Origin: Chiloscyllium plagiosum
Lineage: Eukaryota
Length of the DNA: 64,000 nucleotides
Direction of reading: 5' to 3'
Assembly: GCF_004010195.1 (NCBI RefSeq)
Contig: NC_057718.1
Location: 58,247,704-58,311,703 of the forward strand
In this document: one piece after another, positions 3,313 to 49,670 of the stretch
Position numbering within the stretch: position 1 is the first letter of the stretch
Layout: each line of letters starts with the position of its first letter
Position numbers and translations under genes: made by a program
Notes under the pieces: model-generated
Databases searched by the model: none
Told to the model about the DNA's origin: nothing
Seen by the model: the letters and a program-made list of their open reading frames with translations, nothing else

Positions 3313-3735
3313 TCATTCGAGTCTTAACAATATGTCAGTAATCACATTTTCTCGTCCTGTCACGTGCACAATTTTCACATTGAATGGCTGTAACAACAAG
3401 CTCCATCTAAACAGTCTGGCATTTTTGTCCTGAAGTTTCTCCACAAGCGTCAATGGGTTATGATCAGCGTACATGATTGTCTCAGATATGTTACTCATAA
3501 CAGAAACATTGCAATGTTGTAACGGCAACACCAAGCTCAAAGTCTCCTCCTCAACTATTGAATATTTCTGCTGATGAATGTTCAATTTCCTGGAGAAATA
3601 CCCGAAAGGTCTTTCTACCATTTTGTCGTCTTCCTGCAAGAGTACAGCACCGACATCCACGCCACTTGCATCAACAGCCACCTTGAATAGCTTTGCATAA
3701 TCAGGTGTGGCTAATATTGGGGCAGTGGTTAACAC
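3313..3735 (-). pseudogene. Gypsy pol RNase H domain
   Basis: LFKVAVDASGVDVGAVLLQ...YFSRKLN..QQKYS..EEETL...ADHNPL...RLFRWSLLLQPFNVKIVHVTGRENV. Confidence 0.92.
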
Positions 3736-6110: not shown

Positions 6111-6455
6111 GGTTACATTCGGATTATTTTCTGTGTATGCCTTTTGATACAATTGGTTTAAATTTTCATCTTACTGCTGTAACTCAGTTAATTTATCGGA
6201 GCTAAAGAGGTCTGCTTTGTCATCTATCTGCTCCTGGTTTGTGTCAACCATCTGATCAAACAAGGTCTCTGCTAATTCCACTTCAACTTTCTTATCTGTA
6301 TTCTTTGATCACTCCTGTTTCAACTGGTGACTTTGTGATCTTGTTATCACACAGTCCAGAAAGATTTCCAGGATGTGTGTCCTGCAATAGTTCAGTTACC
6401 TGAAGTTCCACTGGCTTTTCAACCACAATAGGCAGCACTCCTATCTGTGTACCAG

Positions 6456-8738: not shown

Positions 8739-9659
8739 ATATATTGTGTGATAAATAAGACATTTTTATGCAGAACATCTGAATTCTGTGGAGACAACAA
8801 TACTCTTGCATGCTATGTGTATGGTTCCATTTTATGATTCTTGTCAGTGGGTTTTAAGGCAGGGTTTTGTATAATACAATGCCTGGCCTGCCTACTTGGA
8901 GCTTACCCATGAACTCTAATCCTTCTCTCATTTTATGGAGGCAGTGGCGACATCAGCTGGCCCAGCTACCCTCAGGTTTTCTGAGATCCTTAAGTAATCA
9001 ATGAGTGGCCACTTAAATGCCCTTCCTAACTCTGTCACAATTATTACCCACAGCGGGGAGGCTCCACACTAAGCAGGTAGCCGACAGCTTTTATTGGTGA
9101 GCTGGTGTCTGAAAAGGGGAGATTTCCTTTGGAGCTCCCCATAACATTATTACTCATTTTAACTGCAAACCCCCAGCCTCTCCTCGAACAGATATCCCAG
9201 CCAGGCTCTGCTGCTATTCCAGATTTACAGTCAATCCAGCTTCCATTAGTTCCTCTTCTTTAGGGATGTCTTGCTAGAATGGCCACTGTTTGAACATGAC
9301 GCAGCCAGGACTAAGAGCTGACTACTTTTTAAGGCCAATTTTCTTAGCACCTCACTAAACAATAAATGACTGTTGGACAGCCTGTGTTGGAGTTCCCTGT
9401 TGACTCTTCAACTGACTGATGAGCAGAAGCTCTTCATTTGAAAAGTTCTGTCCAACAATACTGTGGAACTAATTTGCACTTACTCGACTTTGAAATAACA
9501 CTTATGAAATATAACTGGAAACTGGCAGAAGTGGGAGTTAGCATCAAATCAGTGAACATACTGCTGGTTTCCACCTCATCAGCATCTTCCCCTACATGCT
9601 CCATAATTGTTTGAGGCACCTTTGATTTGGTCGGAACCTCATGAATGTAACAAAGAATT

Positions 9660-10771: not shown

Positions 10772-11434
10772 AGAAACATAAACAGAAATTGCTGGAAAAG
10801 CTCAGCAGATCTGGCAGCACCTACAGAAATCAGAGATAACACTTTGGGTCCGGTGACCCTTCCTCAGAACTGATGGTAACTCGGAAAAATTTGTTTTTTC
10901 ATGCAGAAGATAGGGGATAAGAGGGTAACAATAGATGGAAATACAGCTCAAAGAGAGAGAAGGACAGTTGGACAGACAAAGGAGTAGATAACGGTCAGCC
11001 TAGGCAAATGAATAGCTATTAATGGGGGACTATTAGTGACTAACAATGGATTGGCTGTAATAACAAACCATGTGATAGCAAGGCCTGGTGTGTGGACGTT
11101 GGTGTAAGTACATGGGAAAAGATGCCTCAAACCCTAAAATTGTTGAACTCGATATTGAGTCCAGGAGGTGTAGAGTTCACAGGCGGAAAATGAGGTGCTG
11201 TTCTTTCAGCTTGCACTGAGCTTTGCTGGAATACTGCAGCAAGCCTGAGACAGAGATGTTGGCTGAAGAACAAGGCGATGTGTTAAGGTGATAGGACACG
11301 GAAAGCTTAGGGTCTTTTTTGCGGGCAGAATATAAGTGTTGTGTGAAGTGGTCACCCAGCCTATGCTTCATTTCCCCAAAATAGAGGAGACCACATTTTG
11401 AGCAGTGAAGGCAGTAAACTGGATTGAAATACAT
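10772..11434 (-). mobile_element. Penelope-like element 3' end: GIY-YIG endonuclease remnant, UTR and terminal repeat with decayed hammerhead
   Basis: VYCLHCSKCGLLYFGEMKHRLGDHF...KLKEQHLIFRL, then a frameshifted GLNIEFNNFR; minus-strand CTGAGGAagggtcaccggaccc at about 10845-10867. Confidence 0.9.
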
Positions 11435-14560: not shown

Positions 14561-16272
14561 CCTAAGGTTCAGCCAAATGATATAAGTGGTCAGTGCCTCA
14601 CGTGATAGTGGCTATCACAGCAGTTAAGAAAACACAGAACATAACTGAAGGCTTCCTGAATGGCTGACCGCTCTTCCAAGAAAGTAGTAAAATTCTCACC
14701 TCGAAGCAATGAATACTGGTCCCAGCATTATATTTCTCTGGGGCAGCAGTCAGCACTGTGGCTGGCTTCGTCCTCAGATTTTTACCCGGGAGGCCAGGGA
14801 TGATGGCATCCCAAAAACATCCAACCCCAAATATGCAACATCTGAACTTATATTATCAAAGCAAAATATGTGGCAAATAAGTGGTTCTTTATAAAAAGCC
14901 ATATTAACAATGATGAATGCTGTAGGTGCGTATCCAGGCTTTTGTCTCTTTAATTAACAAAGACGCTTTAGTTTGCAATCAGTGTTTACCTTGTCAGTTC
15001 ACAGATACATTTTAAATTTGACATTATTTATCTGTTCATCTGTTTTATTTATGTTATTTCCTTACATTTCTGTGCAGCATTTTTGTCTCTTTGAGATTCC
15101 AAGCTCTTTATTTCTGTGATCATAAAATGTTTCAACGGACTCCTGTATTTGATGTCTTGTATGTATAAAAGCAACAAAAGCAGAGACTTGTCCTTTTTTG
15201 GTTCTCTGCCAATATCTTTTTGATGCTGATCATGTGAATTATATTGTCGAATTGTTCTCTATTTTCTTTTGTGGAATTTATTTTGCTGAATAAGTTATCT
15301 GAAATACTTGGACCAAGGATAATACCAAACGTGTACTGAAAATCACACCAAATGTATCAGCATTTTTTAAAGTAATGTACAATAAATGTCATTAAAACCA
15401 GATAATTGATGGGCACACTAATGGCCCTTAAACTAGTGCACATTAATACACACCAGCTATTTGGTACCAAATCACTTACAAAGTGCGTCACCTGTTGCAG
15501 AAAGAAAAAGGCCACAGAATGTTGGTTTGCCTAAATAAAACCTCAGCGTTATTTTATATGTGTCTTGGGTGGATGTTAATTAAACAGTGTCGTTCCCCTT
15601 TTATCATGTTTAAGACATACAGAAGAGTTGCTGTTATCCAACAAGCATTGGATAGGGTGGTGCCTGTAAATAAAAATAAAATGCCAGCTATCAGGGATTT
15701 ACTACAAAAGTAAGAGGTTAAAAAGAAAACTCTATTGACTCATGTAGTATTGCTTTTGAGCATCTCAGAAAATAAAAGCTGATAGTTGGAGACAATAAAG
15801 ACACCATTTATAAAGCTTACTGGAGAAAGCAATAATTAAGACACTATTAATAGCAAGGAAAGCGATGGATGATGTGAAAACAAATCCTTCTCTGTGCTTG
15901 TCACACTGTGTTCTCCTATGCAGCACTTCCTGGCTGGTTACAAAGATGCATTTTTGCAAACAGCTCAGCCACCTACCCTGTTGGCTCAATAAAGGGAAAG
16001 AAGTAGAAGCCAGAAAAACATAAATAATTTCAAATGAGGAATATCACCTTCAATGAAAAGTCAAATGGTTTAAAGTGTATTTAGTTTGTGGATATCAAAG
16101 GGTGGGAATGATATTAGAGATTCTGACTCATGAAGCATTTTGGTTGCTATGGTGCTAGATAATGTAAATCTTACTCTAGTTGGGCAGGCAGGCATTCCCT
16201 ACATGTCTTCAGGAATGTTGATGGTCTTTTGTTACATTTGCAATCATTGAGGATTGACTTATATATGGAATG

Positions 16273-16493
16273 AGCTGAAAATGTGTTGCTGGATCAGCGC
16301 AGCAGGTCAGGCAGCATCCAGGGAACAGGAGAATCGACTTTTCGGGCATAAGCCCTTCTTCAGGAATCCTGAAGAAGGGCTTATGCCCGAAACGTTGATT
16401 CTCCTGTCACCTGGATGCTGCCTGACCTGCTGCGCTGTTCCAGCAACACATTTTCAGCTCTGATCTCCAGCATCTGCAGACCTCACTTTCTCC
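16273..16493 (+). mobile_element. Palindromic PLE-derived mini-element with paired hammerheads and 14-bp TSD
   Basis: Inverted arms centred at 16366, a ~34-nt tail, and ttatatatggaatg at 16259-16272 and 16494-16507. Confidence 0.92.
16363..16402 (+). ncRNA. Minimal type I hammerhead ribozyme motif
   Basis: ggaatc CTGAAGA a GGGC ttat GCCC GAAA C GTT gattct; helix I ggaauc/gauucu, palindromic ACGU helix III, GUU triplet. Confidence 0.75.
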
Positions 16494-16567
16494 TTATATA
16501 TGGAATGACACAGACTGTGGTATAAAATGTCAATTTTTGCATATAGTAAAAAGGATCATGTCGACCA

Positions 16568-40185: not shown

Positions 40186-40204
40186 CCTGTACCATGGATA
40201 ACAT

Positions 40205-40426
40205 AGCTGAAAATGTGTTGCTGGAAAAGCGCAGCAGGTCAGGCAGCATCCAGGGAACAGGAGAATCGACGTTTCGGGCATAAGCCCTTCTTCAGGAATT
40301 CCTGAAGAAGGGCTTATGCCCGAAACGTCGATTCTCCTGTTCCCTGGATGCTGCCTGACCTGCTGCGCTTTTCAGCTACCACATTTTCAGCTCTGATCTC
40401 CAGCATCTGCAGACCTCACTTTCTCC
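40205..40426 (+). mobile_element. Palindromic PLE-derived mini-element with paired hammerheads and 13-bp TSD
   Basis: 94-bp arms (40205-40298 and 40299-40392) with the inner 75 bp perfectly complementary; 34-nt tail at 40393-40426; TSD ccatggataacat / ccatggagaacat. Confidence 0.94.
40295..40334 (+). ncRNA. Minimal hammerhead ribozyme motif (mirror copy on the minus strand at 40263-40302)
   Basis: CTGAAGA (40302-40308) a GGGC ttat GCCC GAAA C GTC gattc; helix I needs a one-base bulge. Confidence 0.75.
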
Positions 40427-45290: not shown

Positions 45291-45473
45291 AAAGACCAAA
45301 GAGAGAGTAGACTTGTATTATTAAGATTGTGATTTGCACAGTGCAGTTACATTGGAAAATATGTAATGGTTGAAGCAACATGTTAAGACTTATGAAATTG
45401 TGATGCATTCTCATTAAAATGTGAAAATTCAATAATTGACTGTTCTGACGGACAACAATATAAACATATTTCA

Positions 45474-45823
45474 GTTGAAACTTTATTGCTGGAACAGCAC
45501 AGCAGGTCAGGCAGCATCCAGGGAACAGGAGATTCGACGTTTCGGGCACAGGCCCTTCTTCAGGAATGAGCAGAGAGTGTTCAGCAGGAGAAGATAAAAG
45601 GTAGGGAGGAGGGACTTGGAGGAGGGGAGTTGGAAATGTGATAGGTGGAAAGAGGTCAAGGTGAGGGTGATAGGTCGGAGTAGGATGGAGGCGGAGAGGT
45701 CAAGAAGAAGACTGCAGGTCAGGAAGGCGGTGCCGGGCTGGAAGGATCCGGCTGAGACAAGGTGGGGGGAGGGGGGATGAAGAAACTGGTGAAGTCCAAG
45801 TTCATCCCCTGCGGTTGGAGGGT
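45474..45823 (-). mobile_element. Young PLE 3' fragment (GIY-YIG C-terminus, UTR, terminal repeat), TSD CATATTTCA
   Basis: Minus strand translates TLQPQGMNLDFTSF; its terminal ~92 bp closely match the palindrome arms; catatttca at 45465-45473 and 45824-45832. Confidence 0.9.
45532..45567 (-). ncRNA. Minimal hammerhead ribozyme motif in the PLE terminal repeat
   Basis: attc CTGAAGA a GGGC ctgt GCCC GAAA C GTC gaat; intact core, 4-bp helix I, palindromic ACGU. Confidence 0.8.
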
Positions 45824-46720: not shown

Positions 46721-49670
46721 TTGACATCTTTTACTAAGTTTTTACTAATCCTAATAAAACTTTCTTTGACCTAACACAATTTTTTTTTGTCTGACTATGC
46801 CCCACTATGTCCTTTGTGACATCAAAAATTCTTTATGAATGCAACTTATCACTGTACTTAAAATCTATTGTCAAAGATTACCCAGAGACCATTAATATAA
46901 GTGGGTGAAGGAGGTGCTGACTGGGTTCCTTATGTGAGTTGCTCTGTTATAGTCAGTACTCCCCTGAAGAAGCAAAGTGATTGAATAACTGAATTGGAAT
47001 CTGCACATTAATCTTTTGACTATATTGTATCTGATCATGGATACAATATTAAACACTTGTCCAGATTGAAAGCTTTTCAGGGAAACTGCAAGTATGAGCC
47101 AGCCATCACAGCTACATAATTGTGGAAATATGAATACTTTTTAAAGCTGTACAAAACTGTGAGAGAGAGTACTGCTCAAGGTATTTGTGTTCAGTAAAAT
47201 GTCTGTTTTGTATGCAAGTTCCTACATTGGTGGTCTTTATATCAATGCATGAGCCACCAATCAGACATGCAACCCTTACCTGGAAGTTCAGAAACCTGGA
47301 AGAACAATAATGAACTTTGATGACTACTAAAACCAACATATCTACCTCTCTCTTTAAACCACAAATAAAAAGCATCTCGGTTGGATCTGAATTCAATACA
47401 AGAAGAGCAATATCAGAAAAAAGTACACATTTATTGTAGATCAATTGAATAAATTAAGACTTAGGCATTGCACTTTTTCCCTGTTGCCTGTGGGCTTGCC
47501 AGCATTATACTGATGAGACTGGAGCTCTATTTTTAGATGTCCTGTATGCTGCCTATTTTAGCTAAAATTTACTGTCACCATTAGTTAGCTAAACAAAAAG
47601 AGAAAATGGAAGCAAAATGATATTGTCTTCATGGAAATTTATGAGAGCGGCACGTTTTTCTTACTGATTTTTCCATCTCCTCTCAATGTAGCTCAATGTG
47701 TGTGTACTTACAAAACACGAGGCTAGGAAAGTAAAATATATAAACACAGAGATTGATCGAAGTTTGTAGAAAATGAGTATAACTTTCAACTTTCCATCTC
47801 TAAGTTCTGACTTTGAGACTAATCATGTACCATGACTGCGGTGAGCATGAGCTGCATGTTTATTTTTAGGACTTATTGAATTTCAAAGTAGTTCTTGTGA
47901 CTATTCACATCAAAGAAATAATGGGATCATGACTGATCTGAATTAATAATCCTGATAATATAGAGAAAAATAATCATCCAATTCCTAGATTGGTATAGTG
48001 CAATTCTGACAACCAGAATGTTTTTTCCGCATTTAGGTCTACTCTAAATGCTAAGTATCTTTCTTCACCTTTTGTCGAATTGTTTGATAGGGTGAAAGCA
48101 TTGCTGGTGTTGTGTATACAATGATGCTAACCACTACCAGAGCATGATTGGGATAGTTTGCTGCTACCACCCTCTTTCTTTGTCTGGGTCTGAGGGCTGT
48201 CTTAAAAAACCAGTCCTTTTCCCATTACAGTCCACAATCAAAAATAAAGAATAATAAAATGAAATGTTCTTTATACAGGCAATTTTACTCCTCCTGCCTT
48301 TTCTTCCTAATGTGATTATTTATTCTTTTTACTTTGAAGGTTTAATTTTAATTCCTTGGTATTTCAATACTGCTTTTATTCTTGGTCCCAACTAGGTTCT
48401 GTTGATTCTTTCAGCAGAAGCAATTTTATTTTATTTTCCTTGCTGTTTAACTCTTTGGTTAGCAACTATATCTCTGTATTGGTTACTGGGAATTTTCCTG
48501 CAATTTTGCAGTCAAGATGGAGGCTTCTTATCTTCTACAGGTAAAATATATGTTTTGCACTGGCGAAGTTGTCAATTTAACAGCTTAATAATACCTGTTC
48601 TTTTTCTATGAGCATTCCAAATAAAGTTCAGTGCCTGCAGTACCACTAAATGTTTCCTACCTGGGTAGCTGAAATTATGGATCTCTCACTCTTCTCGTAC
48701 ATTCAATAATCTTAGTATCATTTTTTTGTTAGACCATGTCTGTTTAGACTTTTAAATCATTCCCTTGTTGCCTAAATTCCTGGCTTCACAATCTTACCAG
48801 TGCTATGACCTTGGTTTAGATTACTTGCGTAGCCACGGATTCCCCTACTGCAATCATACCTCATCCTATCTGCTTACCATGGCTGCAGCACTTGTTGTGA
48901 ACTTAGATTTCTGTTTTAACTTCTAGCCTTCTCAGCCAGTCCAGTAGCATTAATCTGAAGTTTTCCTCTTAAGAAAGATTTGTGTTATTGCGCGATAGCT
49001 ATGAGGTACAAGTTACATTAATAAGGTAAACATGGTTTTAGCAACTGTTATGAGACTTGAGGTATAGGTATTCACTCTACAAAGTTCAGCCTTTGCCTCT
49101 TCCAAGTGCTTATGCCATCATCAGATTGGGTGGAGCTTTCTGCATTCTCTTAAATTAACCCTTTCAGAATTGTTACTTTATACAACAGCTGACTAGGCAA
49201 GTATTTATTGCACATCTGTGGCACTTGTGAATCAATTTCTTAAGCCTTTGCAGTCCATCTGATGTGTGTACAAGTAGAATGCTGTTGAAGAGGAAATTCC
49301 ATGATTTAGACTTGGTGACCGGAATAAAAATATAGTTAAAGTCACAACTGCATTTGACTTAGATGTATAAACAGGAAAGGGTCATACAGGCATAATGTTC
49401 TGTAATCTGGGTTAAACACATAATAACATTAAAAGTACATGAAGAAGTCAACTACCTTTGAAACGGTTATAATACTATTCAGTAAACATTGCAAAATGCA
49501 GTGAAGTTGAGGTTTACTTTGAACCTAAGGAGAAGTGATGTAATAGTTTTGAGTCAGATCCAATTTAAGAATTACCCAAGTATAAAACCACCACCATTAT
49601 TTTAATAATTCTATGTTTTGAATGAAGTTATAATCCTATTTATATAGTATAATACTTAGTTATACACTTA

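Follow-up and report, generated by a model that had tools for sequence, protein, structure and literature searches.

Introduction

In the available text of Arkhipova et al. (2013; PMC3846280) and Craig et al. (2021; PMC8557442), the typical insertion unit of Penelope-like elements (PLEs) is an inverted, 5'-truncated copy with a tail of 30-40 bp at one end and a target-site duplication (TSD). The purified PLE protein of the anole nicks and extends both strands of its target and starts reverse transcription from two adjacent internal sites, the interval between which corresponds to the tail, and hammerhead mutants of this element insert normally (Frangieh et al., 2024; PMC11167929). The minimal hammerhead ribozymes (min-HHRs) of PLEs have a helix I of about 4-5 bp and, in the examples, a helix II of 6-8 bp according to the available text of Cervera and de la Pena (2014; PMC4209133), which also mentions dual min-HHR motifs on opposite strands, 100-700 bp apart. 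Here we describe a 221-nt mirror-image insert, copy 1, at positions 16273-16493 of a 64,000-nt stretch of contig NC_057718.1 of Chiloscyllium plagiosum (the whole stretch is called the window hereafter). We conclude with high confidence that copy 1 is a 5'-truncated fold-back of the pseudo-long terminal repeat (pseudo-LTR) end of a PLE, likely made anew at integration, when both nicked strands of the target primed reverse transcription at two different start sites on the element RNA.

Structure of Copy 1

Copy 1 consists of two inverted arms of 93 nt each (16273-16365 and 16367-16459), which are 95% complementary and separated by 1 nt, and of a one-sided extension of 34 nt on the right (16460-16493). 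The arms were computed as 94 nt (16272-16365 and 16367-16460), but their outermost pair is a chance one that reaches into the duplication. Both ends of the element are abutted by the direct repeat ttatatatggaatg, which stands without a mismatch at 16259-16272 and 16494-16507; this duplication is 14 bp long, and including the ambiguous boundary bases c and a would bring it to 16 nt. We number the module from m1 to m127, where m1 is position 16367; the predicted ribozyme cut lies after m30, the end without the tail near m93 and the end with the tail at m127 (Table 1). The concept of a tail is that used for PLE insertions by Frangieh et al. (2024; PMC11167929) and in the available text of PMC3846280 and PMC8557442.

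An earlier note on this DNA had described a palindrome with an exact 14-bp TSD and one hammerhead motif per strand, of the same structure as a second copy in the window. The inverted arms, the exact repeat and the descriptor matches agree with that description, and copy 2 (40195-40426) is of the same build, with a duplication of 13 nt whose halves, ccatggaTaacat and ccatggaGaacat, differ by one mismatch. The centre of copy 1 had also been read correctly as caggaatcctg; that of copy 2 is caggaattcctg.

Relation to a Penelope-Like Element

Other copies of the family continue upstream of m1 into a common sequence (...cctcat / TCCTGAAG), for which there are 932 candidates. One of the long copies, L032, is a fold-back flanked by a 14-bp duplication, its arms measuring 382 nt (including the tail) and 539 nt, and the long arms of L032 and L038 encode about 68 amino acids (aa) that match shark and skate proteins in a homologue search (57-85% identity; E 1.7e-15 to 8e-12). 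The match is placed directly after the GIY-YIG N-motif of the homologues P0002 and P0003, and P0003 scores 69.1 bits for RVT_1 against a cutoff of 29.6. Because the module is continuous, in the long copies, with a 3' untranslated region and with a C-terminus of the reverse transcriptase (RT)/GIY-YIG type, the module is, judged by its sequence, the end of a PLE, and the parent element is predicted from the homologues of the contiguous long arms to encode a reverse transcriptase. The insertion traits of PLEs are present as well, namely an inverted 5'-truncated copy, a one-sided 34-nt tail, a short variable TSD and a 5'-truncation series. A literature search on Penelope, shark and hammerhead ribozyme found no published description of this shark family.

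Abundance and Forms of the Family

When the 221-nt element was used as a query against its own 3.56-Gb genome, 1,392 first-look candidates were obtained, and the 40 places that were scored were all full length with 89-100% identity. The palindromic junction pattern GCCCTTCTTCAG-N0-14-CTGAAGAAGGGC occurs at 6,292 sites of the genome, compared with 0 for the reversed control, and the exact tail 25-mer occurs at 49,529 sites. Two samples, both positional and not picked by similarity to copy 1, were read: sample A comprises the first 50 of the 6,292 junction sites (contig C1), and sample B comprises the first 40 tail sites, which represent 39 insertions.

Exactly one tail was found in 47 of the 50 copies of sample A (27 right, 20 left), two tails in 2 and none in 1. 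The short arm ends mostly at m88-100, and at m41-76 in six copies. In 30 copies the flanking duplication measures 12-16 nt and has no more than one mismatch (mode 15 nt, 14 copies); of the other 20, the script detected a shorter match in 10 and no match in 10. The 50 copies have 33 distinct centres (GAATC 10, GAATCATTC 5, GAATTC 4, CCATTC 2, and 29 singletons), several of which contain arm-derived filler, e.g., GAAGGGCTT.

Fold-backs account for 21 of the 39 insertions of sample B; 16 of them are like copy 1, with both inner ends near m0, and five (L095, L097, L115, L117, and L127) are asymmetric, the two arms having different module ranges, as in L095, where m76-126 is joined to m91..-125. 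Ten further insertions are simple copies, which start at m-10..+7 and have no inverted arm, four are truncated at m45-88, and four are longer and reach m-41..-234, the 5' ends of the family copies in this sample spanning m88 to m-234. With 16 of the 39 insertions belonging to the type of copy 1, this 221-base stub is the commonest landing form of the family.

Probable Formation of the Fold-Back at Each Insertion

A palindrome that replicates as a unit would pass on both its centre and the side of its tail, which is not what the copies show. In sample A, 39 of the 49 arm pairs show no difference at 12 diagnostic sites, and mismatches within arm pairs amount to 15 of 537, compared with a mean of 184 and a minimum of 121 in 2,000 partner shuffles. 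The centres nevertheless differ within one haplotype (e.g., 11 copies have 11 centres), and the same centre types recur in at least six haplotypes or subfamilies. Read along the tail-bearing strand, the GAATC-type centre is GAATC in 6 copies and GATTC in 3, and among the 29 other loci that resemble copy 1 most closely a GAATC/GATTC centre is found in only 3 copies. The haplotype classes of the stubs are found in the long copies too. We conclude that each insertion probably builds its mirror half afresh, and that the palindrome does not replicate as a unit. The TTAT-loop palindromes were also considered as a separate lineage without long relatives, and this was rejected, as TTAT haplotypes are also present in the long copies L105, L108, L110, L127, and L095.

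Proposed Mechanism of Integration

We propose that one target strand would prime at the distal site, m127, and so acquire the tail, and that the other target strand would prime about 34 nt upstream, at about m93, and acquire none. Both complementary DNAs (cDNAs) would run to about the same 5' limit near m0, just upstream of the CUGAAGA box. The limit is probably the 5' end of an RNA initiated within the pseudo-LTR at an initiator-like TCATTCC (m-3..+3), whose resemblance to the initiator motif we assume. The 3' ends of the two cDNAs would then be joined with little or no homology, which would give the variable centre, and the resulting copy would be dead on arrival. The hammerhead motifs would be carried along from the pseudo-LTR, where the ribozyme presumably processes the element RNA, either with the help of a protein or as a dimer, and the 6-bp helix I of copy 1 would be a by-product of one common junction type. 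Two regularities of the sampled copies bear on these steps: simple copies and fold-backs have their 5' limit in common, which suggests this limit as the start of the usual template RNA, and the strict one-tail rule points to the use of the two start sites one per strand.

The same kind of PLE by-product could be generated by snap-back, in which only one cDNA, primed at the tail site, turns back and serves as its own template. Self-priming at palindromic junctions is favoured in the available text of Arkhipova et al. (2013; PMC3846280), and both the arm-copied filler in some centres (such as GAAGGGCTT, mentioned above) and the simple copy L098, which starts with a 5-nt inverted snippet, are in line with it. 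The asymmetric fold-backs, however, have arms that cover different ranges, so that one arm was not copied from the other; self-copying cannot give these 5 of the 21 fold-backs of sample B, and two independently primed cDNAs are favoured over snap-back. In addition, the short arm ends at a defined position (m88-100) beside the duplication and not at the end of a first cDNA, two tails are seen in only 2 of 50 copies, and both strands are extended in vitro (PMC11167929). We therefore regard snap-back as unlikely, and return to priming from both target strands.

Several points weigh against this reading and against the assignment to PLEs on which it is built. The Pfam scores of the homologues for GIY-YIG, 16.9-21.7 bits (21.7 in P0002), are below the cutoff of 22.6, the 51-52-aa C-terminal fragments themselves gave no match in Pfam, and none of the copies that were read is full length with an intact RT, L038 and L041 having runs of N in their interiors. 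The 5' end of the RNA at about m0 was placed from DNA ends alone. The joining of the junctions has a bias for which this reading does not account: GAATC makes up 20% of the centres (10 of 50), while its expected companion GATC, the class that would arise if both arms were one base shorter, is absent (0 of 50). The one-tail rule, finally, is not predicted by the published in vitro results, in which both sites are used alike on both strands.

With less than even confidence, we suggest a wider significance of these copies, which is that the natural junctions may record a coupled asymmetric double priming, one target strand using the distal and the other the proximal site of one short pseudo-LTR RNA, and that a transcript of about 127 nt with an uncleaved hammerhead, starting just upstream of the core, may be the minimal and most used mobilisable unit of a vertebrate Penelope element.

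Hammerhead Motifs

The hammerhead core is present on both strands of copy 1, at 16369-16396 on the plus strand, where it ends with GUU, and at 16363-16336 on the minus strand, with GAAAAGUC. Each strand reads CUGAAGA-A-GGGCUUAUGCCC-GAAA, followed by CGUU (plus) or AGUC (minus). A min-HHR descriptor gave seven matches in the window against 0.97 expected, and none of 100 shuffles reached seven; the matches at 3571-3611 and 9416-9447 were rejected for lack of a convincing helix II, and they fit the approximately one match expected by chance. The core positions C3-A9 and G12-A14 and an NUH triplet (GUU plus, GUC minus) are present, and helix II, A-GGGC UUAU GCCC with its unpaired 5' base, forms in the local fold and has 4 bp. 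The ACGU palindrome is found on the plus strand and reads AAGU on the minus strand. The motif conforms in sequence to the definition of the PLE-type minimal hammerhead. No hammerhead family of Rfam was detected at the gathering score in the window, or at E<=10 in 361 nt. The hammerhead models of Rfam include helix III, which the minimal PLE type lacks.

The GUU triplet of the plus strand and the loss of ACGU from the minus strand, both pointed out in the earlier note, are confirmed by the descriptor match and by the sequence AAGU, respectively. The position m30 of the plus motif, at a CpG, is T in copy 1 compared with C in 214 of 229 arms, which results in GUU, and m27 of the minus arm is A compared with C in 194 of 229 arms. 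We read both variants as private changes of copy 1 after insertion.

The same note had observed a 6-bp helix I on the plus strand, and the strands GGAAUC (16363-16368) and GAUUCU (16397-16402) do form six contiguous pairs, one of them G-U. From this it had argued that helix I, supplied by the junction, may constrain the position of the centre. Taken further, the argument would make the palindrome a self-propagating, non-autonomous ribozyme element in which helix-I-forming centres are favoured. This would be consistent with the continuous helix I of copy 1, with a 66-nt local transcript whose minimum free energy fold is the hammerhead (-15.8 kcal/mol), and with GAATC being the commonest centre. 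The sampled copies are not in accord with it. Contiguous helix I pairs number 6 on the plus strand of copy 1 (through the junction) and 2 on its minus strand, as against 2 in the parent context; among the 100 strand readings of sample A, the check for enrichment of helix-I-forming junctions found only 11 that reach 6 bp (10 copies), the mode being 2 bp (48 readings), as in the parent context, and 15 readings have no recognisable core. The 33 centres in 50 copies, the presence of GAATC in at least six subfamilies with a tail orientation of 6:3, and its scarcity (3 copies) among the 29 loci nearest to copy 1 likewise argue against the constraint. Simple copies begin at the same place as the fold-backs, so that this position is set by the end of the template and not by ribozyme pairing, and the centres, which are not inherited, give selection no target.

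The predicted folds point in the same direction. The whole-element transcript is one hairpin of -182.6 kcal/mol, compared with -137.2 kcal/mol when the hammerhead helices are enforced, a preference for the hairpin of about 45 kcal/mol, and only a short local RNA prefers the hammerhead. Because each transcript contains one motif, a dimer cannot form in cis and a partner molecule would be needed. The constraint on the centre is thus not supported, and a self-propagating ribozyme element is largely refuted and, in our judgment, very improbable. The hammerhead motifs of copy 1 are likely passengers and not a new kind of mobile ribozyme.

Hammerhead-cut RNA was also considered as the usual template. 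There are 170 junctions at a distance of up to 14 nt from the cut site, compared with the 6,292 that lie upstream of the core. Of the first 50 of these 170 only 4 are exactly at the cut, and none of the 39 insertions of sample B is a simple copy starting at m31. The scarcity of cut-site junctions together with the missing m31 starts indicates that cleaved RNA is rarely inserted, and cut RNA as the usual template was rejected.

A miniature inverted-repeat transposable element (MITE) or a hairpin-RNA or microRNA gene, as might be suggested by a palindrome with a flanking duplication and by scores of 42-47 bits with microRNA hairpin models of Rfam, can be set aside with near certainty, since those scores are far below the gathering thresholds (80-97 bits) and reflect the perfect hairpin, while the one-sided tail makes the ends asymmetric, the duplication is mostly 12-16 nt and variable, the centres vary, and the 5'-truncation series and the continuity with an RT/endonuclease coding region are traits of a retroelement.

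Other Copies and Further Observations

The features of copy 1 and of the other members in the window are collected in Table 1.

Table 1. Features of copy 1 and related copies in the window.
Feature	Position	Strand	Basis or remark
Left TSD, ttatatatggaatg	16259-16272		Exact repeat; 11 of 14 bases A or T
Inverted arm without tail, m93 to m1; outer end would be the no-tail start site	16273-16365	-	95% complementarity; aligns to module positions 1-94
Hammerhead motif CUGAAGA-A-GGGCUUAUGCCC-GAAAAGUC; ACGU lost (AAGU)	16336-16363	-	Descriptor match; predicted cut after base 16336
Single unpaired central base, centre type GAATC	16366		Same centre type in 10/50 sampled genomic copies
Direct arm, m1-m93	16367-16459	+	Inverted-arm search, module alignment
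Hammerhead motif including helix I strands	16363-16402	+	Descriptor match, folding
Helix I, 5' strand GGAAUC	16363-16368	+	Across the junction
Core CUGAAGA	16369-16375	+	
Unpaired A	16376	+	
Helix II, GGGC/GCCC	16377-16388	+	
GAAA	16389-16392	+	
ACGU palindrome	16392-16395	+	
U17	16396	+	Predicted cut after this base
Helix I, 3' strand GAUUCU	16397-16402	+	
Tail, 34 nt	16460-16493	+	One side only; stretch between two inferred reverse-transcription start sites
Right TSD	16494-16507		Exact repeat
Copy 2	40195-40426	+	Same build; centre GAATTC; tail right; 13-nt duplication with one mismatch
Third member, longer, non-palindromic, no tail	45473-45700	-	Runs upstream of the hammerhead into the parent 3' untranslated region

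The third member has CUGU instead of UUAU in loop II, with the stem kept, and a G-rich/C-rich 3' untranslated region upstream. Two diverged pieces, at 1473-1538 and 10789-10819 of the window, match approximately m48-110 with 76% and 87% identity, and are probably older relics of related Penelope tails. Within copy 1, an ATG at m49 opens a frame of 26 aa through the end of the tail (16415-16492, m49-m126), and a frame from the ATG in loop II meets a stop at the start of the tail. In published PLEs the pseudo-LTR and the tail include the first residues of the open reading frame, an arrangement which the m49 frame recalls.

Elsewhere in the genome, no coding continuation downstream of the tail was found in 146 flanks. 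In 3 of the 146 the tail is followed by the same sequence of about 40 nt, aaagattttaacctactgcgaatcc... (L019:1843-1882, L056, and L063), which stands likewise upstream of a module in L019 and L036. This sequence may belong to a composite or tandem arrangement, or it may be a repeat that is preferred as a target. The two-tailed palindrome L067 (G000:C1:13016343-13016872) has arms of different subfamilies, which differ at 3 of 12 diagnostic sites; no duplication was found for it, and it may represent two RNAs in one event or two head-to-head insertions. Runs of N abut or interrupt family copies in L038, L041, L023, L109, L120, and L126, and fold-back repeats may break the assembly at such runs.

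Comparison with Known Systems

Copy 1 is an ordinary dead-end product of a known class of retroelements and has little weight as a discovery. Its use is as data: the understanding of PLE integration is still poor, and young junctions bounded by TSDs are available by the thousand in this genome. The junctions agree with the in vitro finding of two-strand priming at two start sites, to which they add the one-tail rule (47/50), and they show that hammerhead-cut RNA is rarely the inserted template (170 vs. 6,292). Near-perfect palindromes of about 190 bp might also give rise to hairpin RNA and to gaps in the assembly.

The insertion unit of endonuclease-bearing (EN+) PLEs, as given in the available text of Arkhipova et al. 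(2013; PMC3846280) and Craig et al. (2021; PMC8557442), resembles the insertions described here in its head-to-head inverted truncated copy, its one-sided tail, its short variable TSD, its pseudo-LTR hammerhead and its heavy 5' truncation. The family differs from it in that only the last ~127 nt are present and the whole insert of copy 1 is a 221-bp palindrome, and in that this stub, with 16 of the 39 insertions of sample B and 6,292 exact junction sites, is the commonest product.

PAc, the Poseidon of Anolis carolinensis (Frangieh et al., 2024; PMC11167929), is alike in that both strands are nicked and extended, in its AT-rich target, and in its two adjacent internal start sites with the interval appearing as the tail. 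Hammerhead cleavage is not needed by PAc, which is mirrored here by the 170 cut-site junctions as opposed to 6,292. The strict use of one site of each kind (47/50) differs from PAc, for which no strand difference is reported (PMC11167929), and the two belong to different families, the host here having an elasmobranch-type genome.

The min-HHRs of PLEs in the available text of Cervera and de la Pena (2014; PMC4209133) share with the motifs of copy 1 the core CUGANGA...GAAA, the unpaired base on the 5' side of helix II, an almost missing helix III, whose dimer-permitting ACGU is kept here on the plus strand, and a short helix I. Compared with the examples in that text, helix II has 4 bp here and the two motifs lie 5 nt apart, core to core, one arm being without the palindrome and the other reading GUU; the motifs of copy 1 are putative ones, recognised in sequence.

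The non-LTR retrozymes are also related to PLEs, contain hammerheads, are non-coding and have a high copy number, as far as described in the available part of the preprint (bioRxiv 10.64898/2026.07.22.740005). They are, according to the same part, direct tandem repeats with ribozymes on one strand, and can excise a circle, whereas copy 1 has one motif per strand in inverted order. An identity with retrozymes was rejected for copy 1, since in place of tandem hammerheads on the same strand its motifs lie on opposite strands, and it has no two cut sites on one strand that could enclose a unit. An identity with MITEs was rejected in the same way, as a one-sided tail and a variable TSD were found in place of symmetric fixed termini and a fixed TSD.

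In the 5' inversions made by twin priming of L1, the second target strand primes on the same RNA and yields an inverted 5' part, the two parts being different, adjacent stretches of the RNA. The fold-back of copy 1 differs from such an inversion in that both of its arms cover the same stretch, which gives the palindrome.

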